Below are positions 6,363-62,590 of a stretch of DNA of 64,000 bases, one piece after another. The DNA comes from Antedon mediterranea. Lineage: Eukaryota; Animalia; Echinodermata. The notes under the pieces are model-generated. The model was not told the DNA's origin and did no database searches. It was given only the letters and a program-made list of their open reading frames with translations. The stretch is taken from assembly GCF_964355755.1 (NCBI RefSeq), contig NC_092679.1, forward strand, positions 3,068,201 through 3,132,200. Direction: 5' to 3'. Every line of letters starts with the position of its first letter. Positions within the stretch are counted from its first letter, which is position 1. Position numbers and translations under genes: made by a program.

Positions 6363-6487
6363 GTATATTTATAATTCTATTTTTATTTTTAATCTAAGTA
6401 TAGAGTTGGAGAATTTTACTAAAAATATGAAATTTACACATAAATGTGTGATTAAAGTGTATATGTAACTTTTATTTTCAGATAATT

Positions 6488-9400
6488 ATGAATAAATCAA
6501 ACATCTCAAAAAGCTTCTCATCAAATTTTGAATCATCCGTTTTGAATAATGAAGATAATTGGTTGGCACTCCAAACATTTAGAAATCTTATCAAATCTTG
6601 CTATGGGCCTAATGGCCATCTCAAGACTGTCCAGCATCATAGTGGTGGCCAGGTAACCTTAACATCCAGCTCTTACAACCTCTTAAGGAATCTACCAATT
6701 AAAAGAGCATTTCTGAGATTGCTGGTGACTGCTGTTACTGAGCACCTGCGATTATTCAGCGACGGAGGACTCTTTGTTGCGCTGTTTGCTTCGGAACTCA
6801 TTTCTCTTTCTTGTTTTACTGATCTTCCACGGATATTATGCTGTGACGTTAACAGCATACTATTAAGTTGGTGCAAAGAATTTATGAGTATCTGCAAGAT
6901 TCCTGTTGACATCAGCAGTATGGACCAGATGATGGCAGTGGTTCGATCAGTCATATCAACCAAGCCAGCTTGCTCATTTTCTCAGACAGACATCTTGCAA
7001 ATTTCGAGTTTGATCATACAAGCTTTCTTAAAAACTCTGCCACCTGCTGACTCTCATAAACTCATGGATCAATTTGTCCAATATATCGAGGTCGGAGGTT
7101 ACGATACAGCGAACTCACAGATTGTTGATGGTGTGTTGTTTCAGCTTCCAAATGACCTTCAAGAGGACTTCCTTCCACCAGAAGAGAGTTTTCATTCTGG
7201 TTCTTTAAAGATTGCCCTCTTCAAAATCTCTTTAGCAGGAGATACTGACGATTTTGTGAACACCGTTTACGAGGTTACAGAAGGGTTATCCCCAATGGAT
7301 GTTGTTACTCAAAAGCTCTTTGACATTGCAAACAAACTGATTGAAGATTCCGTTGATGTTTTAGCCTGTCAAAAAGTGATTCACCCAAGCCTTAAGAAGT
7401 TTCTTACAAAGAATAGAATATTAGTAATTGACCGTCTGTCTGTTGTTAATATTGGCGCCATTGAGACTCTTACAGGTGACTTTTATACTTTAATATTTCT
7501 TTAAACTAGATTTTGAATTGAATTGAAATATATATTTATACTGGGTAACCTCTTCAGTCAAAGACTGGTCTCCCAGGGGGCCCAGTTGGTGATCAGTGGC
7601 TGTGATGTACTAATACACCGGGGTCACCCCCTACTCGTCTCAAAAGATGTACTAGGTTTTTTAAAGTGCACATGAGCTATGTGTGTACACTGGGCCTACG
7701 GTTTATAGGCCTTATCCGAGAAGACTCGTTCTACCACCAGAACCATGGAGTGAGTGAGCCTCGAACCCCTGCCGATGTAATGGCTACGTAATTACGGTTC
7801 CACTGTCTTAACCGCTCGGCCACTCACTCACATTTATATTGTGAATGTTTAATGCAAATAAAAACCCATTAGACTCACAAGCTATAAAGTTTTGTTTTAT
7901 TGATTTTAAAAAAAAGTATTTTCATGATCCGCTATGCAACTATTATTAAGTTTAACAAACATTCTGCAAATGCTCTTATGTTTCTGAGCATGCTCAGTTG
8001 TATGGTCCTAAAACGTGTTGTTATTTTTTCTTTTTTTCATTTTTATTCACCAAGGATAGCCCAATAATTCTGTATCATGCTGAAATTCAAAAATAAATTT
8101 TAATAAATTATTTTGTTTAAAAGGTGCACAGTGTATTTCTAGCTTGCATTGGTCCGACCGAATGGAGGGTATGTATGGAAGACTGGAGAAGCTTGAAAGA
8201 GCAAGTTATTTCAAGAAAAGCTATTACCATTTTGTGAATACTGCTACTCCGGTGTGTACATTGATTTTGTGTAGTATACTTCAAGAAACATTGACTGAAA
8301 TAAAGGTAACAATAAGCCAATCTTATGTCAGTTACAAATATTTACATATTTTTTGATTAATATTTATTATTTGTATTTTTATCTGTTTTAACCTCTGTTT
8401 ACACTAGTTTGACAAAAAAAGTGTGATGTGTCCAAATATGGTAGTGATATGACAACATCATGTCCATATATGGGCATATCATATTTTTTTCGCATAGAGT
8501 TTGATAGTGTAGACAGACCTTTAGACTTTAGAGGTGTAAACTAATTCTTCTCTATTTTTTATTTTCACCCTTTTAGAGTGTTTGTATGGTTGCGCAAAAT
8601 GTCTTGCGAAGCCTGCTTGTAAATCCAGTCGTTTTACCTGGTGCCGGGTGCTTTGAAGCGTTGCTTACTGCTTATTTGAAACAGAAAGTAAGTGTATGAT
8701 GTAAGGTGTGAATGGGGTTTAAACAGGGAAATCCAATTACACTTTAAAGTGAGATACTTAGTATTTCACTTAAGTGAGATACTAAATATTTCACTTAAGT
8801 GAGATACTAAGTATTTTACTTAAGTGAAATATAAAGTATTTCACTTAAGTGAGATACTCAGATACAAATAAAACTATTCAAGCGCCGACTCGATCGCTAT
8901 CGTAGTCGTACGTCACTTTACAATATACAATGAGTTAAAAAGAAAAGAAATACAAACAATTTTTATATAGTACAGTTATAACTGACAAATTTTGTACCAA
9001 AATTTAAAAATAGTAATATTAAAAACTCGAAATAAAAAGATGTCTATACCGCAACAAAACAAAAACATTACATGCTATTTGCGAGTTGTATAAGATTGTT
9101 TCGTATTTTCCCTGATCTTGTTAGGTATACTGTACAAAATTTGTCAAGACACAATAAAACATTATTACTAATGGGAAGTGTATCCTTCCCAGAACATATA
9201 ACATTTTTCGTCATTGTTACTGGTGCAGAATGTTTCCCAAACATCTAACTCGTCTTGTTTAATTATATTTAACTGTTCTGCTCTTACACATTGTAATGCA
9301 TCACAGCTAAATAAAAAGTGAGATATGTCCTCTATATTTCCAGAGTTACATAATGAACAGAGACCATCATTCTCCATGGTCCATTTACTTAATTTAAAAT

Positions 9401-13483: not shown

Positions 13484-16023
13484 ATGACTTCCTTACTCAA
13501 TTGGTGGATCATCTTCCACGTGATATTGTGGACTCGTGTAAAAAGCTATACTAATAAACCTAACATCATAGTCTTCCTGGCTGATGACATGGGCTATGCT
13601 GATCTGCAGAGTTTTGGAAACCCGTTATCGCGTACGCCACACGTAGACGCTCTCGAAGCAGGAGGCCTAAAGCTGACACAGATGTACAGTGCCTCAGCAA
13701 TCTGCAGCCCCGCAAGGTTAGAGAAGTTATAATTATAGAGAATATTCCGTGAATACAATATAACGAGTATACAATAATATTTAGTAGTAGTAGGCCTAAT
13801 AGGCCAAGGGTTAGACCTACGTAGCCACGTAACTTAAGGTACGCAATAGCAATCCAGTATTAACTACAATAGGCCTAAAGCCATGGTTCCCACACTAGCG
13901 ACGCAACCTACGCAACGTAAGAAAATGCCCTTCAAATAATGTTTTTCCCCGCCTGCGTGAAATCAAACCTGCGATGTTTGCAGCACTCATTGCGTCATCG
14001 GTTCCCACTTGTGATTACGCAATACAACACTTTGCGTCGATACGTCGCTGCGTTGCGTTCTAGTGGGAACCAAGCTTAAGGACCAATCTTGATGAAGTTT
14101 GGTGCGGATCTCCGTGGGTGTGTCACAGGGAGGTGTCAAAGTAGTATAACATATCCATTACGTGTTGATTTTTTTTTTCAGGGCAGCGTTACTAACGGGG
14201 CGCTATCCTGTTCGTAGTGGAGTCTGGACTCCAGACGACGGGCAACTCGTGTTTGCACCCAAGTCCGTGTATGGTCTTCCTCTTAACGAAACGCTTATTC
14301 CAGAAATGCTAGCCCAACAGGGTTACAAATCAGCTATTGTCGGCAAATGGCACCTTGGTGTTGGGCTTAATAAGAAATACCTGCCTACAAACCAAGGCTT
14401 CCACCATTATTTTGGAATGCCATACAGTCATGAGGGATGCGTATGTGCTGCATGTTTTTATCCAGACGTAGAATGTGTGAACCCTAACGTGTATAATAAT
14501 TCTAATGCTGTGACTTGTCCATTGTTATTAGAAGAAGATATTATTGAGCAGCCGATTAATTTGACATCTTTAGCTGAACGACAGACTAGAGCCGCTAGAA
14601 GCTGGATACGGGAATTCGTCTGCGAAGGAAGCCCTTTCTTTATGTACTATTCCACTCACCATCCACATACCCCGCAGTTTGCTAACAGACACAATGAGGA
14701 CGCAACACTGGGCGGACAATACACCGATGCACTGGCAGAGCTGGATTGGGAACTAGGAGAAATAATGGACGAGTTAAGAATAAACAACATAATAGAAAAT
14801 ACGTTAATATTATTCACATCTGATAATGGGTACGTTAATAAAATAATGATATGCCTATAATGAATAAGAAGATACAATTAAAAAAGATGATTCTCAGTTG
14901 AGGTGCAACGCAAGGACGTAGACGATGCAAGCGAGTTGACCAATGACAAGCGACAGTTCGAATAACAAATCGCTTGTGATTGATCGAATTACTTACGTTA
15001 CGTCCTTGTGTTGCGTCTGTAGTGTGAAACAAGCATGAAAATGCGCTTACGTCCTTGTGTTGCATTCCTATAGTGGGAACCAAGATTTATGCTGCATAAA
15101 GTGCTCATAAAATTAAAATGTTCTTAAAATTTCCTTTGCAATTGTGTAGACCTGATAGAGGAAGCCATACACTCGGTGGATTTTCTGGAGCAATGCGATG
15201 TGGAAAGTATACTACTTTTGACGGCGGGTCGCGAGTACCGACCATTGCGCACTGGCCTGGTCACATCCAACCGGGTGTGTCTAGAGAATTGCTGAGTCAT
15301 CTAGATATATGGCCGACTCTTAGGCGGTTAAGTGGTTCTTCTGCTGAAGATTTTGATGTCATCCTGGATGGGTATGATGTCACAGACGTCTTATTAAATG
15401 GAAAAGAGGTTAGTTCCATGGTTATTTACAGTTGGTTAGAGATTACTCGCATATTTATTTCTGATGAAAAATATTAACAGTTATCAGTTATATAAGGAGG
15501 CATACTGATAAGAAATGTAAGGTGTTTAGTGACGCATATTTTCTTTCAGAGTCCACGAAAGTCGATCTTGTATTACAATGTTGTAACAGACCCAGAAATA
15601 GGAGCATACGCAGTGAGGAACACTCAGTACAAAGCACATTTCTTTGTGGAAAAAGTTGTGTACACAGATGCACTGGATAACGATGAGATGTGTAGATCCG
15701 ATAATTTCACTGTTGATGCATTTTCACCGCCAGCTTTGTACGATTTGTTACTGGATCCCGAGGAACGGTTTGATATCAGCGGTAACTCTGAGGACATAGT
15801 GCAACTTATGACTAAACTGATGGAGGAAGAGTCTCGTAGAGTGACATTTGGGACAAGTGTTATTGGACCGTCGAATGTAACTTTAAAACTGTGTTGCAAT
15901 GAGGAATGTGAAGAACCCACTGTTGATTGTTGTGACTGTCCTTCTTTATACAATGACGATCTTTTACCATTACCATCTTTACCATACGCAGACTGCACAA
16001 CACAAAATCATTTCACAAGATAA
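13484..16023 (+). CDS. ARSA: Arylsulfatase A-like sulfatase (~537 aa, signal peptide)
   Basis: Exons 13484-13716, 14182-14829, 15150-15408, 15550-16023; motifs PNIIVFLADDMGY.D, CSPAR|AALLTGR, GKWHLG, FTSDNG. Confidence 0.85.
13879..14077. mobile_element. Harbinger-like MITE family B
   Basis: TIR (agc)TTGGTTCCCAC...GTGGGAACCAAGCT with acgcaacg motifs; other copies at about 14890-15086, 30694-30852 and 35025-35208. Confidence 0.7.
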
Positions 16024-20172: not shown

Positions 20173-21078
20173 CTATTCTTCTTCACTTCTTGATACGTCA
20201 TCTCTGTAATCTTGCAGTTCGTCGTCATCATTGAACCTAACTTTGGTTTGTACAGTAGTGAGGCTGTGTTCTTCTTCTTCGTTGTGCAAGCCAGAGTAAG
20301 GGAACGAGTATGACATTCCGGAAAAGCGCAGTGTAATCTTCATAGCAATTATCTGTACGATGATGACGATAATTGCTAGCATACAATGCCAAGCAAATAT
20401 CATTGAGAAGAATTTCACATTCAGGTGGTCATCTTCATCCCACGAATAATCGCTAAGAGGATGATAGAGGGTGCAGCCAATCTGCAACATCCAAGATCCC
20501 TGGATAAAAGTAGCCCATATACGTAACCATGGTAACACATCATCTTTCGGCAGCCAAATTTCTCCTAACGTAAACAGCAAACAGAGGAACACCATTATTA
20601 CCTGTATAACATGCATTCGTATGTTCAGTGCTGATCGACCGTGTAGATGGAAAGAAAACAGCGTGCATTCGATGAAAAAAGCAAACGCTAGAAAAACGTT
20701 AGCCCACCTTTCTTGACCTTTAAACCAGGTTCCGACGGCAATTTTTGCCGCTCCGTACATCGCAAAGCCGGCCCACATAGTACAATGCTGCCAAATGCTT
20801 GAGTATATAAACACACCGTCTTTGTTGAACAGTCTCCACCTCCATGTTTTGTAAACTTGTTCGCCTATAAGCCCACTAAGCGCTAAGACCAGCACGAGAA
20901 TCCCTTCAACCGGCAGTCGTCGAAGAAGGAGATGTAGTTTAGAATATCTGTTATTACCTTTTCGTCCACCACCACCAATTCTTGGGTAAGTTGAATTGAA
21001 AACTCTTTGTAAATTCCACCATACCGACAACGCCATGAACATAATACCAGAAGCGGCATGCCCAAAAAATCCACCCAT
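20173..21078 (-). CDS. TMEM45: TMEM45B-like (DUF716) membrane protein, intronless CDS
   Basis: MGGFFGHAASG..F...WW, EG, WQHCTM, F.FHLHGR..L...H, QGSW..QIG..LY.P, F.WH. Confidence 0.88.
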   Translation of the reverse strand: MGGFFGHAASGIMFMALSVWWNLQRVFNSTYPRIGGGGRKGNNRYSKLHLLLRRLPVEGILVLVLALSGLIGEQVYKTWRWRLFNKDGVFIYSSIWQHCTMWAGFAMYGAAKIAVGTWFKGQERWANVFLAFAFFIECTLFSFHLHGRSALNIRMHVIQVIMVFLCLLFTLGEIWLPKDDVLPWLRIWATFIQGSWMLQIGCTLYHPLSDYSWDEDDHLNVKFFSMIFAWHCMLAIIVIIVQIIAMKITLRFSGMSYSFPYSGLHNEEEEHSLTTVQTKVRFNDDDELQDYRDDVSRSEEE

Positions 21079-21717
21079 TATGACGTCTACAAACAAGCAA
21101 GTAAATTAGTGTATAGTGTATTCATATTATCAAATGGTATTTTTTTAGGCCTATACTTGTGACGTATGTGCGTTGTTGATCACGTTTGAAATGCAAATGC
21201 AAGGTCAGCTAGCTAAGAATCTATTTGTATTATCATGGATTAATCCATGGTATTATCCAAAGATCGCATTTGGTACTTAACACTCGATGAGTAACTTTTG
21301 ACCCAATTGAAACGGATCAATACAGTGGCTAAGAAGACAATGCCCATTGTATGACTTTTTAACTATGGTACTAAACGGTATTCTGTCTTGCTGTCTTTAA
21401 AGCCATTTTTTAACCATCATTTTAGACATTTGCATTGTTTTAGATTGTTTATAAGATTGTTTCTTCTTTTTAAATTTGAGTCTCAAGTTTTAACTTTCTG
21501 TATTGTAACATTGTTATATGTAATCATGTATGGAATGTTGATTTTGACCGAATAAATGCATGAATAGCTTAAACGGTTTTTCTCGAATATAATATAATAT
21601 CATAATAATAATATTATTAGTATTAAATTATAAGCCTGTCAAAAATAGATATGGTTGTATAATGAATGGCAATGAAGCTCTTCTGCCCACCCCGTGTCCA
21701 CACAACGTAAGCGCAAC

Positions 21718-23298: not shown

Positions 23299-24189
23299 TT
23301 ATAAACTATTGTCCGACCAGTTATTTTGTGATCTGTTCCCGCCTTGTAAACGTTCCAAATACATAGTGTCACTTCGTTGTTCATTATCACTGTCTTCCCC
23401 TATCTCGAGCTGAGAATATCCTCTCTTGTGTCCGAAGGTGAACTTCATTGCTATTGCCACGATCAAATACAACATCACCACTGATATAACATTTCCAATA
23501 CAATGCCAGGCGAAAATCATTGTAAAGAATTTCACACTTTGGTCGTCTGGTTTCCATTGGAATCGCCCGGTTCGTATCGGATACAATGCGCAGCCAACCT
23601 GAATCAACCAAGTACCATTTACAAACGTAGCCCACATTCTCATAAAAGGTAAGAACTTGTCCTTTTTCATCCATATCTCCATTCCCGAAAATAATACACA
23701 CAGTAAGATAGCAATTAACAATAAAACATGCAGTTTTGTGTTGAGTACATCGCGGTCTTTTAAGTGGTTTAGAAACACGATACTCTGAATGAAAAAAGAA
23801 AATGTCCTGAAAACTGGTATCCATGGTTTTAGATTGACGCAGCAGCACGCGGCCAGGATCTTAACCAATCCAAAGATCCAGAATGCCACCCAGATTGTAC
23901 AATGTTGCCATACATTAGCCTCTATAAAGTTTCCTTCCTCGTCAAACATCTTCCAGCGCGTGTAAGGGTACATATTTTCCGCTATGAACCCAAATGCTGT
24001 ACACAGACAAATTATGATACCTTCAAGTGGTATACGCCGACACAGCCTGAGAGGTCTTGACGGTACTCCAGCCCTTCCATCCCGTTCATACTTGTTTCGT
24101 AAGGTGTTGAACGATAATTGGAGCACCCACCAAGATGCCCAGATTAGAAAGAAAAACCCAGAGCCTACGTGGCCTAGCCAATTGCCCAT
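23299..24189 (-). CDS. TMEM45: TMEM45B-like (DUF716) membrane protein, tandem paralog, intronless CDS
   Basis: MGNWLGHVGSGFFFL..WW, PLEG, WQHCTI, GTWLIQVG..LYP, FAWHC. Confidence 0.88.
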   Translation of the reverse strand: MGNWLGHVGSGFFFLIWASWWVLQLSFNTLRNKYERDGRAGVPSRPLRLCRRIPLEGIIICLCTAFGFIAENMYPYTRWKMFDEEGNFIEANVWQHCTIWVAFWIFGLVKILAACCCVNLKPWIPVFRTFSFFIQSIVFLNHLKDRDVLNTKLHVLLLIAILLCVLFSGMEIWMKKDKFLPFMRMWATFVNGTWLIQVGCALYPIRTGRFQWKPDDQSVKFFTMIFAWHCIGNVISVVMLYLIVAIAMKFTFGHKRGYSQLEIGEDSDNEQRSDTMYLERLQGGNRSQNNWSDNSL

Positions 24190-24798
24190 TGTAGTACATC
24201 AATTCCTGTTAGAAACAACAAATCATAGTAATACTACATGAAAGTAGTCACCAAAAGTCCAAACTTTGTCATTTTTTTATAGACCGGCTCTTAAAAATTC
24301 TTTAAAAAGTGTGTATCGACCCTCGATACACACTGTACTAACAATAGTGGACTTTGAAACATGCCGAAAGTTTCATGTAACGAGTGTTGGCAAATTCCCT
24401 TTTGTACTTTTGTGATAAGGCATGTATGATTAACACTTCTGCTGATTGACAAAATGAATGTTTATCCCCGGATCGAGGTTTACTTACTGGTTCGGCTTGA
24501 CTGGCTTTGTTTTACTTCTGGCATGAAACGGTGCCCGCCGAGTCAATGATAGACTTTGAAGCTATCTTTGTTTGAAGGCACAATCGACGTTCCATATCAT
24601 CGACATTCTGTTTGTTTGAACGTTGAGGGCAGGAAAACAAATAGCAACAACCTAATTTTTCTGTCTTAAAAATAACCAAGTAAAAGTAGGAATTATTATA
24701 AAACTACTACTACTTTTTTGTAAAACAAACTAATCGCTAATGTAGAATATGCATTTACTCTAGTTGAAGATAAATAAGCGTTACATAATAAAAAAAAA

Positions 24799-27700: not shown

Positions 27701-30686
27701 TAAAAAAAAATAAATAGTGGAAAGTTGTTATCGTAAGGTTTAACCATGGAATACAGGTTCTATCCGTCCATGTGTGAAGTTCCGCCCTCAATATAGTTCA
27801 TCCTTGATTCTATACTAATATTGACTGTGAAAATGATATTATTCTCTTCTGTTTAACAAAACATGACTTTCCGTATTATGTTAATGTTAAAGTGTAGGCC
27901 TAAAATGGTCTATAACTAGCTAGGCTTCTATTTTCTATGTTTTGTCAAACTTGAGTTGTGAGAGTACATTTTAAACCTTTCTCTTAGGGGAACCAAGATG
28001 GCAAGGCAGTGCTTTGAGTTAAACTCTCAGCCAGTAGGCCTAGAAAGAGTCGGCAAAAGTATAGTAGTTGGCTGCATGGATAAAACACTGCAGAGTTACA
28101 CTACAAAGGTATAGCACTGTTTGTTTTATTTAAATGAAATTTACAAATATTTATAAAAATCAGTTTATTGTAAACATTACATTCAATTGTTGTTAAACTA
28201 GGGTAAGAAGTTATGGACGGTAGGCCTATGCCTAGCCTAGGTACATTAGTGTACTGTATATTTTAAAATAATTTACGTTTTCATTAAAATGAAATTTATG
28301 AGTATCACTGTTATAATAAAATCAGTTTATTGTAAACATTCAATTCTTGTTAAACTAGGGTAAAAAGTTATGGACGGTATACCTAGCCAGTAGCATCAGT
28401 ACTATGGGGCTGATGGACCATCGACAAAAGGGCTACAAGGCTGTGTTAGTAGGCCTAACAAATAACCAGCTCCAGATCTATCGTGAGAAATACCTTATCA
28501 ATACTATTAACACAGAGGTAAATATAGAACAATAGTTTTCTTTTCAACATACGGTAAATCAAACAGAAAAGTGCTTAAGAGGTTTCACATCATTTGGTAC
28601 TTTATAAATCTGGTCAAAGTCAGTAGAGTCTTTTTGAATTTTCTAATCGTTTCTAATGCCAAGGGTATTTATTTAAATTTTTATTTTATTCTTTAAGGCT
28701 ACAGTAACTGGTGTTCAATTTGGAAGATTTGGACGAGAAGACAACACTCTGATAATGGTCACCAAAGGAGGTGGCATGATCGTAAAGATCTTGAAGAGAA
28801 ACTCCATACTTGATGAGAAGATGTCAATGGCACGAGGACCTCCAGCAGCGCAAGGACAGAAGCTGAACATCCCAAAGAAAACAAAGACGTTTGTTGATCA
28901 GACGTTAAGAGAGAAGGAGAATGGAATTGGTAAATGATTGGTTTATTTTACAGCTAAGAATTTTAGAAGAATTATAGACTTAGGGGAGAAGAAAGTTGTG
29001 GTATGTGTCATCCATACCTGTGCGCAATCCAGTCCAGTAGGTTCAAAGTTGCAGTTCCCCATTTATACTATTAATCGTTTAGTTAGTACTTACTATACTA
29101 AGAGCAAGTAGTTTCTTTTTAAACAGTGATGCATAGGACTTTTCAACATGATCTATATCGCATGAAACTGACGGCCGCCCGAGCCTTCCTGAAGTCACTA
29201 GATAACAGCATGAGTCCAATCTCATCAAATCCTGCAGAACCACTTAAGCTCTCTGCCCAGGTGAATATGCAAATTTTAGCTACTTCATATATTATGCTAA
29301 TTAAGTGATATTAGGATAAGTTTTACATAATCCAATAAATATCTACCGTAATAATTTAAGGTTTAAAAATCCTCTAATCTAAAAGTTTAAACTGCAATTG
29401 CTATATCGACCTCTTCCCTAGTAAAATTATATATTGTGTATATATTTAATAACTATTAATATTTAAGTAAATACTGATGATTTGCATTTACAAATATACA
29501 TACAGTACATTACAAATGTCAGATCAATGTCTAAACAATGTTGATATAGTAAAACATATTTACATTACAATTTTCAGCATACTACAGTAGAAAACTGATC
29601 CTTTGGGGACATTCCTATAAAGGGGACACTTTCGTGTAAAACAAACAAGTGGAACGCTAATACCAACCTCAGAGGACACTTTTTTAGCTCCCTAAAGCGT
29701 TCAACAGTATACCTGTTGTGTGCTAATTTATCTATTTTTTTATACTGTAGGTTCAAGGCATTGGTCCGACCTTTAAACTGAGTGTCAGTCTTCAGAACAC
29801 GTCCATCAACCATCCTTCAATTAACCTATTTATTAGTTTCCTTTTTGACGAGAAACTGTACTCGCTGCAGAAGGCTCTCATACAGGTAACAAACAGTTGT
29901 TTAACAAACAGTTGTTTAAATGTATTTTATTCATTTATTCAACTTCTCACTAAGATATACATTAGGTGTGTGTGACAGCGGCTGTGTGTGATATTTTTTT
30001 TTTTAATTTCAACTTTATTTATAGAGGGTAACCCTTCCAGCTGAACCTGCAGGTCAGCTGATATTCAGGGGCCCTCTTTAAAGTGCAAATGAGTTAGATG
30101 TGGACCTACGACTTATTATTTATTATCCGAGAAGACTCGTTCTACCAACAGAAACATGAAGTGAGTGAGCCTTGAACCCTTGCTGATTTTACGGCTACGT
30201 AATTACGGTGCCACTATCTTAACTGCTCAGCCATTCATTCACTATGTATGTTGCTAGTGCTATTATCATTATTGTAGCACTAACAAAATAAATACTTTTT
30301 TTTCTCTCCGTTTTTTTTTTTTCATCAACGCTTTTTTTTATTTCAATATGACATGAATACAGAAAAGGTTTACATAATAGATAACAAGAGAGAGAGAGAG
30401 ATTTTGTTATTATAGGAATTATATAATAATAGATGGCGTCTTCTCCATGATTTTCTTGTACGATAGTAACTATTTACCTTGAAGTAAAATTTGTTGTTCT
30501 TTTCTTGCCTAGGTACCGATGCTAGTTCCAGGCTTAAACTACAGCTTTGAGACACTAGTTGAATGCTTAAGTGACAAAGGATTGTCAGATGTCATCAAAG
30601 TGTTCGTATTGAAAGAGACTGAGACAGCACCCATCATCACTGCAGTCATCAACATGCCAGTTAGCGAGACGGTGGTTGTTGTCTAG
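24799..30686 (+). CDS. BBS1: Bardet-Biedl syndrome 1 protein (~625 aa, 14 exons)
   Basis: Exons 24799-24914, 25163-25257, 25490-25672, 26087-26211, 26408-26496, 26660-26735, 26829-26960, 27311-27417, 27988-28108, 28359-28517, 28698-28929, 29127-29260, 29751-29885, 30513-30686; motifs [55 protein letters not shown]. Confidence 0.95.
30022..30242 (-). mobile_element. tRNA-derived SINE (second copy)
   Basis: Shares tatccgagaagactcgttctacca...gagtgagcct.gaaccc...ttaac.gctc.gcca with 7542-7832. Confidence 0.75.
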
Positions 30687-31313
30687 TACTTTAAAGCGTG
30701 GTTCCCACTAAGGCGCGACGCAAGGACGCCAACGCAACCCCATGCGTGTTGACCAATGACAAGCAACAGTTAAAAAAAACAACCCTTGCGATTGGTCAAC
30801 TCACTTACGCTATGTTACGTCCTTGTGTTGCGCATCAATTGGGAACCAAGCATTATCAAGATTTTTGGAAAGTGGTCGAGCAACAACACATAGTTTTATG
30901 CTGGTACAAATGTGTGTGTTCAATTAATTCTTTAGTTTTTTATTACTGTACCATAATAGAATTCTGGTTAAAGGACAAATAACTTGTCTAATTTTGTCCT
31001 GTGTGCAAAAGTCTGAATTGGGGGGGTATTTGTGGCTTAAATATTATAAATAGTGTACAGTAAAGAACAGTCCAAGTCAGTTTGTTATTACACAGTATTT
31101 ATTATTATTAAACTACATGTTTAAAATTCTTATCACTTTTTACAGAAATATAAAAAGCCCAGGTCAATGCAGGACTGTACACATACACAATAAAATCACT
31201 GTCCAATTAAAATATTGTAACTATTGTAAACATTTTTATCTTTAATTAAAATATACTGTTAATTATGTCTAATATTTAACTAGAATGAATAAGTACTGAT
31301 TTTGGGTGAGTTA

Positions 31314-31524
31314 AGCTCTGTCTACACTATCAAACTTTATTTGACAAAAAAATGTGGATGTGGACGTGATGATGTCATATCACTACCATATTAGGACATA
31401 TCCATGCATTCATCAGTGGAAAATTACTTCCCATTTATTGTCATTTGCATATAAAATATACAAAAACAGTGATTTGGACACGTCACACTTTTTTGTCGAA
31501 CTAGTTTGATAGTGTAGACAGAGC
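31314..31524. mobile_element. MITE family A
   Basis: agctctgtctacactatcaaact ... agtttgatagtgtagacagagct. Confidence 0.8.
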
Positions 31525-31888: not shown

Positions 31889-32043
31889 AGCTCTGTCTAC
31901 ACGATCAAACTAGTTTGACAAGTGTGATGTGTCCAAATATAGTAGTGTTATAGCCAAATACGGTAGTGATATGACATCATCGTGTCTATTTATGGACATG
32001 TCCCATTTTTTTTCGCATAAAGTTTGATAGTGTAGACAGAGCT
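31889..32043. mobile_element. MITE family A
   Basis: Family TIRs. Confidence 0.8.
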
Positions 32044-32243
32044 GAAGATTCTATATACTATCCAGAATACGTTAAAAATTACATCTAAAATATTTAAAAT
32101 ATGAAACTACCTTAGTTAAAATTTAATTTAAGAGACTAATAATAAATTATTGAATTCGATTTAACACCTTGCATACAGCTACGAACGTTCCAATGAAATG
32201 CACTTTGGTGTCTCAAATAGGGCTTGTAAAATTCCAAAGGTCA

Positions 32244-35200
32244 TTAAACAGAACTGCCACTATTTTCGTCATTGCTTTGGTGTTCTTCCTCTTGTACTGG
32301 TGCAGCTGAAGAAGAAATACGATCTGGAATGCTATCATCATCCTTTACATCCTTGTCAGATTCACATTTGTCCTGCTCATCTTCTATGTAGCACTCTTCT
32401 TCACTCTGCTGCTCTTGAATGTCTTCAGTTTTATCTTCCTCAATTTTTTTTTCTTCTTCTTCCTCAATTTTATCATCTTCCTCAGTTTCATCTTCTTCTT
32501 CCTCAATTTTATCATCTTCCTCAGTTTTATCTTCTTCCTCAATTTTATCTTCTTCCTGATCGCTACTTTCTTTCTTCTCATCTGAGCAAACTTGAATTAC
32601 AGACGATTGTTCTTCTTCGTCATGTCCAGAATCGTTGTCACTATCTTCATCATTAACTGGCTCTTCTGAAATAACATGCGTCATTTGATCATCATCCAGG
32701 CCATCTCCGTCTTTGGTGTTAGATGCAGCGGACACTTCTTTAGTATCGGCAGAATGGACGTCTTCATCCCTGACTTCTGACTGTTCTTCTTCAACGGTTG
32801 AACGAAGCGAAGATGGAGCTGACGTGACATCCTGTTTAAATGAACCAGTTATGCCATGGTCTCTTACTTGTGAAGGCAATGGTCTATCAGCCTGTTGTGG
32901 AGACTTTCCATACATGTCTTCGTCCTCTTTCTCTTTTTCGATAACGCTATCAAAATCGTTTTCTTCTGTTTCGGAATCAGAATCATCGTCTTTCTGCTCA
33001 AGGTCTTTTGTAGAGTCTTGATCTTCAGTTTCGGGATCTTCCTGTCCCTGTTTCTCACTTCCTTCTTTCACATCAGCGTCTGCTGCATATTGTTTCTTTT
33101 CGTCTTTGTTTATTCCTTCGTTTTCATCATCATTGCCTCCAGGTAATTTGATGTCAAGCCCTAGTAAAACGCTTAAGATATTCAAAACCTCTGGACTTTC
33201 CAACTTACTAAAATAACAAATTAAATGCGTTACAGTTATAAAAAATATATTACAAGATTCTGTTTTGAATTATTCATAAAATAATACCTATAATCCCTCT
33301 TGTTCATCAAAAATTTTATCATTTCGAAATGTATATAACGTAAGCTTTGTCCATAGAGGGATATGATGATGTCATATAACTACCATATTTGGACATATCA
33401 CTACCCCTATTGGGAAAATCAAACTTGTTTTGTTAAAATAATTTAGACGGAGCTTTATAATCCCTTTGGGACACCTATTCGGGAGACACCCCTATTAAGT
33501 TCTACTGTCATATTGAATTTTTAACTCACTTCCCAAGTGATATTGGATCTGTTTTCAGTTGTTCTATTAGCTGTTGATAGGCTTCCTCTTCCATTAGTTT
33601 CTTGGTCCTATCATCATTCCTCAACTTCTCTTCAACTCCGGGCATAGCAAATGGGTTAGCTAACGGTTGGCTTAGCGCAGGACCTTTAAAACAAATTAGG
33701 ATATTGTCCTATCAACCAAAAATATGTATCAAATGCTGGTAAATTAGAATCAGATCTGGAAAATGATAACCGTGACACTTTTCTTTGAATTCATTCGATA
33801 TGTTTGAATATTATTACGTCATGCAGATAAATTATCAAGAGAATAAAAAAATCTCCGAACAAAAGGTTCCTTTAAAATTTTAAGAAAGTTAATTTAGTTT
33901 TTTCGACGCTTTTCTTACTTTTAAGCTTCTGGTTGCAGTTCTCCAACTCCTTCTTCATAGTCTCGTTTTCAGGATCATACTCAAGGCCTTTATTATAAGC
34001 TTCTTTTGCTTGTTCGTACTGCTCCAAGTAAAATAGTGCCGTGCCTTTTCGTGAATAACCCTAATTTGTATAAATAAAATATCATAACATACATGTAGAC
34101 ACATTACAGGATATCTTTCAATCGGCCACCATACTATCAATGAGGCATTCTTTCTCTTTATAGGGTGAAGCTCAGTCTACACTATCAAACTAGTTTGACC
34201 AAAAAGTGTGATGTGCCCAAATATGGTTGTGATATGCCCATATATGGTAGTGATATACCCAAATATGGTAGTGATATGCCCAATAATAGTGATATAACAT
34301 CATCATGTCCATATATGAGTACATCACATTTTTATTGTCACATAAAGTTTGATAGTGTACAGAGCTTCAGCCTTGTTTTACTTTTTAAAATATCAATATA
34401 TTATCGAAAATATCAATATATTATCGAAAATATGGATGTGAAGACAAACTTAGATGCGCTTGTGACGTTAGACAACATTCATTAGCAGACAACTTTTAAG
34501 GTGAAAAAGTAGATCCTACCTTCGCCCAATCAGGATTAAGTTCAATCGTTTTTTCTGCGTCTTTCAATGATAATTGGTACTCCTGCAGATGGGCATGCGT
34601 AGCAGAGCGGTTGCTATACAGGACGTGGTTGTCAGGGTCAAGTTCGATAGCTTGAGTGTAGTACTTGACTGCTTCTTCGTAACGTTCTTCAGATAATGCT
34701 TTGTTGCCCTTCTCCTTCAAATCAATTGCATTTGTAGACTTACGAAAGGTCTAGAAATAAACAAAGAAAGAATCACAATCACAAATGACAGGGATAAATT
34801 TCCCGCTCCCCGGATCAAGATCGGCCAACATAGAATTGGTTCATGAAGGTAAATATACTTCCTGTTATCAATTCCGATTTGACCGGAATCCGATTTATTC
34901 GGAATCCCGACCTCACATGCGTATATTTTACTCAGTGTTATTGACGCAACGCAGCGACGTAAGCAACGCAAGTGAGTTGACCAAGTTATTTGGTTCCCTG
35001 ATATCCATTTAACTAACTAACTAAAGCTTGGTTCCCACTAGAACGTAACGCAAGGATGTAAACGCAAAGCAAGCGTTTTAACCAATGACAAGCGAAGTTA
35101 TAGACAGTTAGCAATCACAAGCGAATAAGCCATCGCTTGTGATTGGTCAATTCACTTGCGTTGCGTTGCGTCCTTGTGTTGCGTCCTAGTGGGAATTGAA

Positions 35201-35440
35201 CCGCGCTTAATTAATGAACTAACTTCATGCTTATTATGTGCGCTACCATATGACACCATTTTCCAAATAGGCCATCGTCAATGGCCTATTTGGCATCGAT
35301 CAATATTGACGAAACAGCCCAACATCGAAATAAATAAACAATCATGAAAAGGTTAAAACCAGATTTTTAAAGATTTAGGCCTATACCTCTTGTTGTGTTG
35401 ATACGCCTTCTGTCTCCATGGAGCTAGCTTCAGCCATCAT
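32244..35440 (-). CDS. STIP1/Hop-like protein: TPR1 + DP1 + long acidic tail, lacking TPR2A/TPR2B/DP2 (~514 aa)
   Basis: Exons 35440-35387, 34750-34520, 34060-33919, 33683-33530, 33207-32244, all phase-consistent; LKEKGNKAL...DPDNHVLYSNRSA...PDWAKGYSRKG, NPFAMP..EKL..D.RT, LSVLLGLDI, then ~300 aa rich in D/E. Confidence 0.85.
34169..34366. mobile_element. MITE family A
   Basis: Family TIRs and internal 21-bp repeats. Confidence 0.8.
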
Positions 35441-36277: not shown

Positions 36278-40055
<3,778 letters not shown>

Positions 40056-60276: not shown

Positions 60277-62590
60277 CTAAATAAATGACCTGCTATCATT
60301 TCTACCCTTCATCATCATGTTCTTAATTCTAGGGACAAACTTAGTTGGTATTGTTTGTAAATTCTTGCACATTGTCTTAAAATTAAACGACATAATTTGA
60401 CCGTTGCCAAAATCGCATTCCTGAAGCGATCCATCTCGTTTACACGTACTAACATCAGTTGAAAAGTTAGCGTCAAAATGAAGTCTCCGTTCGTATGACA
60501 TTACAGGCACACCATTCATTTTTACCACTTTTTCTTTAACCACACACACGTTATAAAGAAACAGTTTGAGTTTACGAAAGACGGCAAGATCAGATTCAAA
60601 ATTCGGTCCGTACTCTTTTATGTGATCGTGGAAACGTTTTTTAAAATAGTTATAAAGTTTCATGTCGAGGAGATTCCAGTTGCCTATCTTTTGAACGAGA
60701 TCTTCGGACAATGGCACTTTAAAAGTGCGTTTCTTTTTGGGCAAATAGACAATATCATCAAATTTCCAGCACATTACCTTCTTTAATATTATCAACGATT
60801 CATCAAATAGTTCCGTTATCATAACAAGATCGAAATCTTTGTCCAAGTTTTTGATGGATTTATCCACTACAAATGTGTTAACATCAAGCAATGGGTCGAC
60901 TCCCAAATCAAACATTTGTTGGTTATGACAAACAAAAGGTTGTTTGCTGCGTTTGCAGTTTTCGAAAGGATTTCGCATCCATTCTGTTAATTTTCTTGTC
61001 TTATTTCCACCATGGCCGGCGACGCCAAAATAATCAAATGCGGATTCAAACTGTGTTATAGGGTTACGTATTATAGTTACATACATCGGGTTTTTTTTCA
61101 TCAAAGAGTCTAGAATAGTTCTGTTGTACCGGGTATGTATGCTAAACATATTGTACTTATATTTGCTGTAGTCGCCTACACGAACTCCCTTCGGTGGAAC
61201 TAGAACTTTTACCGTATTGTTATTCATAAAATGATCTCCAATAGGTTTTGTTCTTTTTGGTATAAACACTTGTAATTTGTTTAGAAGTGCAAAATTCTGC
61301 ATTATCCACCATATTGTCGATCCACCAGTTTTGTGAGTCTTCAAAAAGACAACAGTTTTCTTTTTTACACAATTCTTTGTTTTATTAATCCATTGACTGT
61401 CATGACTCCTTAAAAATAATATATGAAAATTGTTTAAACAAAATTAAGAAAAAAGAAATGTTGTTCATTTTCTTTTGATGAATTTTTAGCTATACAGCTT
61501 CATGTTTTTTCCACTCTTCAAATGATTTTAAAAAGTTACCTAACATAAGTATAGAGCGTATATGGGGGTGGATGGAGGTCACAGTAAGTTCATTGAACTT
61601 TAAGTCGTGACCCCTGCTTCAGTATAATAATAACATGCTACAGAGTAGACTAAAATATATGTTTAAAAATGAGATATTTACCTTGTTTGTGTTAAATTTT
61701 TTCTGTTTCTAGCAGAAAGTTTGGTTAATGAGAGTTTCCATAATAAATGCATTGATAAAACAGCTAATATCATCGTAATAATGAAAAACCGAAGAACCTG
61801 GGAAAGATTCAAAATCATTAGTAGTTATTTCTTTAGTTAGAATAATTATAATTCTATTGTTTAATTAACATTTTCAATTTTAATAATATGTCTATTTAAA
61901 ATACACAGTTCAGGACTCTTTTAAAAGAAACTTCAAAAACAATATATTGACATTGTAGGGGTGGGGTGAGAAAATTATACAATGAACAAAAAGTATCAAT
62001 AATTTTGATTTTAAGCCCTGTCTACACTATCAAACTAGTTTCATAAAAAAAAGTGTGATGTGCCTAAATATGGTAGTGATATGCTTAAATAGGGTAATAT
62101 CAATAATTTTGATTTTAAGCCCTGTCTACACTACCAAACTAGTTTCACAAAAAAAAGTGTGATGTGCCTAAATATGGTAGTGATATGCTTAAATAGGGTA
62201 ATATCAATAATTTTGATTTTAAGCCCTGTCTACACTATCAAACTAGTTTCACAAAAAAAAGTGTGATTTGCCTAAATATGGTAGCTAGTGATATGCTTAA
62301 ATAGGGTAATATCAATAATTTTGATTTTAAGCCCTGTCTACACAAAAAAAAGTGTGATGTGCCTAAATATGGTAGTGATATGCTTAAATAGGGTAATATC
62401 AATAATTTTGATTTTAAGCCCTGTCTACACTATCAAACTAGTTTCACAAAAAAAAGTGTGATGTGCCAAAATATGGTAGTGGTATGCTTAAATATGGTAT
62501 TGATATGACATCCTCATTGTCTTTGTCACATAAACTTTGATAGTGTAGACAGAGCTTTCCGACTATCCTTACCTTTTTCTTGGTAAACAT
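60277..62590 (-). CDS. GAL3ST: Galactose-3-O-sulfotransferase-like type II membrane protein (~421 aa)
   Basis: Exons 62590-62573, 61797-61682 (TM anchor), 61408-60277; PAPS-binding VFLKTHKTGGST, TIIRNP..QFESAF.YF, FDLG, FDLVMITE.FDESL. Confidence 0.9.
61994..62556. repeat. Five tandem ~90-105-bp units made of flank plus the left half of a family-A MITE
   Basis: tatcaataattttgattttaagccctgtctacac...gtagtgatatgcttaaatagggtaa x5, ending in one right TIR. Confidence 0.9.

Follow-up and report, generated by a model that had tools for sequence, protein, structure and literature searches.

Hop (STIP1, or Sti1 in yeast) is the protein that hands clients over from Hsp70 to Hsp90. Its TPR1-DP1 module is described in PMC4403447 as a flexible, low-affinity 'Hsp70-client-recruiter'. 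In yeast Sti1, according to the same source, TPR1 is a low-affinity site whose deletion leaves client activation intact, and Hsp70 bound there is at a 'dead end' once transfer to TPR2B is blocked. TPR1-DP1 also drives droplet formation of tagged HOP, as reported in a 2025 paper that calls the module 'poorly understood' (PMC12247213). A TPR domain followed by STI1 is the design common to Sgt2 and Hip, where it provides a hydrophobic client groove (PMC8010706).

Natural losses of Hop modules are on record. Nematodes have lost TPR1-DP1 (PMC12247213), the passages of PMC4522979 that deal with Hop forms mention only those lacking DP1 or TPR1-DP1, and T. brucei is described with a single full STI1 gene (PMC9538636). 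The published natural truncations that we found remove TPR1-DP1 or part of it. Here we describe a gene of Antedon mediterranea, a feather star (crinoid), that keeps this module and continues into a long acidic tail, and which we call half-Hop. It lies in a 64,000-nucleotide stretch of genomic DNA (the window), from which it had been predicted as a STIP1 paralog with an acidic tail in place of the Hsp90-binding half (hereafter the original prediction).

Gene structure, transcription and genomic setting

The Antedon half-Hop lies on the minus strand, where five coding exons join into a product of 514 aa with no internal stop. All four introns are GT-AG, in phases 0, 0, 1 and 2, and the conceptual product is identical, letter for letter, to P0079 (NCBI XP_071962651.1), a singleton cluster annotated 'uncharacterized protein [Antedon mediterranea]'. 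The intron borders, the open frame and the identical NCBI model bear out the five phase-consistent exons of the original prediction. The coding part of exon 1 (35387..35440, residues 1-18) is placed by its GT donor and by the agreement of the joined product with the NCBI model. Exon 2 (34520..34750, residues 19-95) encodes most of TPR1 by alignment and Pfam, including K30, N34, N65 and K95, and is covered by contigs of sequencing run X1 at 34526-34651 and 34622-34750. The third TPR motif, with R99, and the capping helix are encoded by exon 3 (33919..34060, residues 96-143), which is spliced to exon 4 in an X1 contig. Exon 4 (33530..33683, residues 143-194) carries the TPR1-DP1 linker and, by Pfam, most of DP1, and is spliced on both sides in an X1 contig. 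Exon 5 (33207-32244) begins with the last DP1 helix (33150..33207, residues 194-213, placed by alignment); its remainder (32244..33149) encodes the tail, residues 214-514, which is predicted to be disordered, and the stop codon. X1 contigs cover this exon at 33207-32498 and 32481-32018, the latter extending through a 3' UTR (32018..32243) with an AATAAA/ATTAAA-type signal about 117 nt past the stop. The gene model thus agrees that the DP1 exon runs on into a D/E-rich tail with its stop at 32244.

Transcription was assessed by comparing four (X1-X4) of the five sequencing runs that contain this stretch, none of the five on record as RNA; the RNA status of X1 is our guess. One X1 contig of 1,042 nt consists of three consecutive pieces corresponding to exons 3, 4 and 5 and extends over the first 710 nt of exon 5, ending at codon 431. 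Another contig starts at codon 436 and continues through the stop and 226 nt beyond it, and the gap between the two falls in a repeat with an 18-nt period. The pieces of X2-X4 among the alignments listed cross exon-intron boundaries, as DNA would. The evidence for splicing consists, among the alignments listed, of one contig that spans junctions 3-4 and 4-5. Since the contig spliced across exons 3-4-5 enters exon 5, the tail is transcribed as part of the spliced form of the Antedon half-Hop gene. This is the opposite of exon 5 being spliced to downstream TPR2 exons, and, with the RNA label of X1 guessed, it speaks against an untranscribed locus. Minor isoforms may arise from candidate donors within exon 5 at 33058, 32913, 32867 and 32600.

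We looked for the Hsp90-binding half by tblastn with five full Hops, and by an unfiltered scan of 2,848 six-frame segments with an HMM that represents the C-terminal half of 22 full Hops. No TPR2A, TPR2B or DP2 exon was found in any of the six frames across the 64 kb window; the matches were the TPR1 and DP1 exons alone, and the best other match had an E of 4.4. The TPR2A-TPR2B-DP2 module likewise had no match in the half-Hop protein of Antedon or in that of Anneissia japonica, described below. The absence of these exons, which the original prediction had noted as far as the convergent end of BBS1, extends in this search to the whole window, and the C-terminal BBS1 exon itself was confirmed at 30513-30686 (+).

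On the other side, a dehydrogenase E1-alpha gene (36656-40055, +), presumably BCKDHA-like, lies divergently, head-to-head with half-Hop and about 1.2 kb from its start, and a shared promoter is possible. A single-exon Cpn60/TCP1-family ORF at 6452-7504 (+), about 23 kb from the last BBS1 exon, gave no PDB match at E 1e-10. It resembles MKKS/BBS6, and if it is this gene, two Bardet-Biedl genes would be near neighbours. The window also holds two tandem single-exon DUF716 genes (20173-21105 and 23299-24198, both -), which we assume to be TMEM45-like, a sulfatase gene (14150-16023, +) and a galactose-3-O-sulfotransferase ORF (60277-61443, -). High-copy short interspersed elements with a MITE-like look occur in introns and intergenic DNA at about 31310-31520, 31890-32045, 33300-33500, 34170-34370 and 35020-35190, with very deep contig coverage in the four runs.

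The TPR1-DP1 module and its paralogy

In the Antedon half-Hop, Pfam detects TPR repeats and a single STI1-HOP_DP domain (157-210, E 9.7e-11), in keeping with the DP1 originally predicted after TPR1, and the DP1 family PF17830 lies above its cut-off in both the Antedon and the Anneissia orthologue. The top PDB match is Hop itself (7KW7, E 2e-83), with 1ELW at E 1.4e-31, and residues 28-223 align with residues 6-194 of human Hop. AlphaFold2 models TPR1 with a pLDDT of about 96-98 and DP1 with about 81-93, at an rmsd to 1ELW of 1.2-1.3 A.

Residues K30, N34, N65, K95 and R99 of the Antedon protein correspond to K8, N12, N43, K73 and R77 of human Hop, which we take to be the full TPR1 carboxylate clamp, so that the clamp is complete (5/5). 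The Anneissia protein keeps four of the five (K8, N43, K73 and R77), with N12→K in the gene model, at a position that is invariant in 205/205 full Hops. This change rests on a single gene model; the second isoform and a partial copy begin past that helix. The intact clamp of the original prediction therefore stands for Antedon, by all five aligned residues, and fails for the Anneissia model. K8 and N12 are described as Hsp70-peptide contacts of TPR1 in PMC9139896, and TPR2A equivalents of the clamp residues are given in PMC2865030. In DP1, the D-P-R motif of Hop has become S-P-E in the Antedon half-Hop and S-K-E in that of Anneissia, so that D198S and R200E are common to both.

Antedon mediterranea also encodes a full Hop with all five domains (P0137, 552 aa), which supports the claim that half-Hop is a STIP1 paralog, and Anneissia japonica has its own full Hop (P0134, 555 aa). 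A HMMER search with residues 116-225 against 1.84 billion representatives gave 102 matches at E≤0.001. The second of these was P0222 of A. japonica, annotated 'hsp70-Hsp90 organizing protein 2-like', with 58% identity and 126 bits vs 73 bits for the next match; its longer isoform, P0325, has 453 aa. P0325/P0222 consists, like the Antedon protein, of TPR1-DP1 and a tail, here of 252 aa. Two further A. japonica proteins, P0323 and P0324, are partial models on small contigs, corresponding to the N- and C-terminal portions of the half-Hop; they probably represent a second haplotype, and one of the two is annotated 'RPGR-interacting protein 1-like'.

Thirteen of the 331 proteins compared have DP1 followed by at least 60 residues and lack a TPR2 domain. 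Tails above 250 aa occur in P0079, P0222 and P0325 only; the other ten are 70-134 aa long, and the three of these shorter-tailed proteins that we inspected resemble Hop fragments. No half-Hop orthologue beyond the two crinoids appeared among the matches listed. A word-based search with residues 118-245 returned the query alone among 218 candidates; its blanks carry little weight because it missed the Anneissia orthologue.

Both species are feather stars, of different families: Antedonidae (Antedon) and Comatulidae (Anneissia). A TPR1-DP1 tree was built from 23 rows; of the comparison set, 12 rows were left aside, 11 of them unnamed and one named. The half-Hops of both species group together (100/99), as do the crinoid full Hops (99/99), and both clades sit on long stems. 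A sister pairing of the two Antedon proteins was rejected (p-AU 1.3e-5). Since the half-Hop clade spans both species, the duplication is older than the split between Antedonidae and Comatulidae, for which we found no divergence date in the literature. The tree is compatible with more than one position of the duplication above that split: a clade of half-Hops and crinoid Hops has a support of 72/0, and the alternative clade of crinoid and starfish Hops is not rejected (p-AU 0.17).

Between Antedon and Anneissia, TPR1-DP1 identity is 62.5% for the half-Hops and 80.2% for the full Hops, and the corresponding divergence is 0.59 vs 0.22, about 2.7 times. Of 44 columns with a conservation of 90% or more across 205 full Hops, 39 and 37 are retained in the two half-Hops and 43 in each crinoid full Hop, so that 12/88 are lost in the former vs 2/88 in the latter (Fisher p=0.01). 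Within Antedon, we classed 14 single-base coding differences among the variants listed, leaving out the clustered rows at 33020-33031 (a compensated indel). The four in TPR1 are all synonymous, with no non-synonymous change, and the two in DP1 are adjacent and both non-synonymous. This gives 4/6 synonymous variants for TPR1-DP1 vs 20% expected (p=0.018). In the tail, 6/8 of the listed variants are non-synonymous (p=0.44), which looks neutral, and the indels listed there add up to whole codons. Judged from these sequence comparisons, the TPR1-DP1 of half-Hop is constrained yet faster-evolving than that of Hop; the Anneissia orthologue and the four synonymous variants out of four listed in TPR1 speak against a neutrally evolving locus.

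In the TPR1 groove of the full crinoid Hops (P0137 and P0134), Hop position 15 is occupied by Q and position 50 by N; among 205 full Hops, 176 have L at position 15 and 166 have K at position 50. It may be that TPR1 of the full crinoid Hop also drifted once the gene had duplicated, which would agree with a split of roles between it and half-Hop.

The acidic tail

In the Antedon tail (residues 214-514), 116 of the 301 residues are D or E (39%) and 31 are K or R, giving a pI of 4.05 and a net charge of -85; the 252-aa Anneissia tail has 27% D/E and a net charge of -50. AlphaFold2 gives the Antedon tail a pLDDT mostly below 50, except for one helix (437-472) inside a repeat that is specific to Antedon. 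This repeat of E/D/K runs lies at about 32450..32572 on the minus strand, has an 18-nt period and shows a one-codon length polymorphism at 32444. The EEDK(I/T)EE repeats of the original prediction are found in the Antedon tail and are missing from that of Anneissia, so they are not the conserved element.

Alignment of the two tails with BLOSUM62 was marginal: over three settings, the score was equalled by 43-77 full and 6-15 window shuffles, out of 1,000 of each kind. With a composition-adjusted matrix, 0-15 of 2,000 full shuffles and 0-23 of 2,000 window shuffles matched it, and the strictest gap setting shifted the register. Three short collinear matches recur (all on the minus strand): an acidic run followed by F-x-x-V, or F-x-x-I in Anneissia, at residues 273-282 (32943..32972); E-D-M-Y, identical in Anneissia, at 290-293 (32910..32921); and an S/T-rich stretch, 8/9 identical, at 325-333 (32790..32816). 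These alignments weakly suggest that the two tails are homologous.

The first of these matches has a core like that of an LC3-interacting (LIR) motif, for which PMC3320095 gives the consensus D/E-D-W/F/Y-x-x-L/I/V; a corresponding function would be putative. Each tail contains five aromatics and a single [FWY]xx[LIV] core, at an aligned position after the acidic run, in a region with a pLDDT below 50 in Antedon. The Antedon motif fits the consensus except at position -2; in Anneissia, N-N precedes the F, which places it two positions off. In 20,000 draws of shuffled tails, a core appeared in both in 19% and a core in acidic context in both in 2.8%. As the motif was spotted post hoc and these chance levels span 2.8-19%, we treat it as a lead.

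A decayed TPR2A inside the tail was rejected (no HMM match of at least 15 bits), as was a conserved C-terminal motif, the tail ends of the two half-Hops being different. An ESM Atlas search with the tail returned no usable match, and a complex prediction of tail residues 262-340 with TPR1-DP1 scored 0.02. A motif scan found no K-K/R-x-K/R nuclear-localisation-like motif in either half-Hop. By hydropathy scan alone, neither has a signal-peptide-like stretch, the best N-terminal window lying below 0.

Possible functions and comparison with known systems

Given the recruiter role of this module in Hop and the TPR-STI1 design of Sgt2 and Hip, we favour a reading of half-Hop as a cytosolic TPR-DP co-chaperone of Hsp70 alone, similar in design to Sgt2 and Hip. 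This reading holds about half of our confidence, and the binding properties it implies are predicted by analogy with Hop and Sgt2 biochemistry. On that analogy, TPR1 would clamp the C-terminal EEVD of Hsp70 with low affinity and DP1 would cup hydrophobic client segments. Because TPR2A and TPR2B are missing, neither docking to Hsp90 nor transfer is predicted, and half-Hop would hold Hsp70-client complexes with no hand-over to Hsp90. Our most tentative suggestions concern the tail, which may derive from a DP1-TPR2A linker exon that expanded once the 3' half was lost, and which may act as a charged solubilising spacer whose few short motifs recruit another partner.

It seems rather unlikely that the protein is instead a neofunctionalised holdase or scaffold with a decaying EEVD clamp, in which the TPR surface and the DP1 groove bind other partners and the polyanionic tail shields basic clients, for instance histones or ribosomal proteins. 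The N12→K change in Anneissia, the conserved DP1 residues D198 and R200 lost in both species and the faster evolution of the half-Hops would all fit such a role, as would the strong negative charge of both tails, in which composition is better kept than sequence. However, both species retain K8, N43, K73 and R77, Antedon has the whole clamp, and the K-K/R-x-K/R motif is absent from both proteins.

The tail motif raises the further idea of an autophagy adaptor or triage receptor, in which TPR1-DP1 would catch Hsp70-bound clients and the F-x-x-V/I motif would dock ATG8/LC3/GABARAP, diverting them from Hsp90 folding. The single aligned core per tail, the preceding acidic run and the near-consensus sequence in Antedon point this way. 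We nevertheless regard it as quite improbable, considering how often shuffled tails yield such cores, the post hoc choice of the motif and the N-N of Anneissia; moreover, the F-D may be left over from the beginning of TPR2A.

When the linker of Sti1 is deleted, Hsp70 becomes trapped on TPR1 and client activation falls (PMC4403447), and a full Hop is co-encoded with half-Hop in both species, which is what one would look for if half-Hop were a dominant-negative competitor of Hop that sequesters Hsp70-client complexes and tunes their flux into Hsp90. But TPR1 is described in the same source as the weaker Hsp70 site, so a free TPR1 module should compete poorly, and a tail of 250-300 aa is left unexplained; this reading, too, has a low probability in our view.

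That the gene is a drifting truncated duplicate or an artefact of annotation, without a selected function, is very improbable and largely refuted already. Faster evolution, one clamp change, a near-neutral tail and the failure to find an orthologue beyond two crinoids among the matches listed could be read in favour of this view; set against these are intact frames and the same architecture in two families, 62.5% identity in the domains while the tails can barely be aligned, the synonymous excess in TPR1 and the spliced transcript. Finally, a Ca-binding skeletal matrix protein, suggested by the very acidic tail and by the fact that crinoids biomineralise, is scarcely credible: the lack of a hydrophobic N-terminal stretch in either protein disfavours the secreted or biomineral form of the Ca-binding role in the original prediction, and the term STIP1/Hop is absent from four supplementary files of the A. 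japonica skeletal proteome of 280 proteins (PMC7351957), whose list may use gene ids.

The Antedon and Anneissia half-Hop genes were already known as automatic annotations. What is new is the same gene pair, half-Hop and full Hop, in two crinoid families. We found no description of such a half-Hop gene in the literature, with subscription journals outside the search, in line with the original suggestion that it may be undescribed. That two families maintain, under selection, a TPR1-DP1-only gene next to a full Hop suggests a separate role for the module, and half-Hop offers a natural construct for testing TPR1-DP1 alone, in yeast or in vitro. The reach of this is limited to two non-model species and a function read from sequence.

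Among known systems, half-Hop is closest to the TPR1-DP1 of Hop/STIP1/Sti1 (1ELW, 7KW7), with about 42-52% identity to 34 full Hops, the same fold and direct ancestry. Unlike Hop, it lacks TPR2A, TPR2B and DP2, and thus the known Hsp90 site, and an acidic tail of 252-301 aa replaces the 38-39-aa linker of the crinoid full Hops; on this comparison it is Hop-derived and not a canonical Hop. Sgt2/SGTA and Hip/ST13 resemble it in having one HSP-binding TPR domain followed by STI1/DP (PMC8010706, PMC4403447), and Hop scores far above SGTA and Hip in the PDB search with half-Hop. Whereas Sgt2/SGTA and Hip carry N-terminal dimerisation domains (PMC8010706), Pfam finds none in either half-Hop, which has about 25 residues before TPR1 and a long acidic tail. 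The top feature match in the ESM Atlas (0.96), compared by its listing alone, is a short TPR protein of 335 aa, mostly from plants, in a cluster automatically named 'putative STI1 domain-containing protein'. C. elegans STI-1, without TPR1-DP1, and Drosophila Hop, without DP1, are likewise cases of natural module loss (PMC12247213, PMC4522979). Half-Hop is their mirror image: those forms keep the Hsp90-binding half, whereas half-Hop lacks it and stands beside a full Hop.
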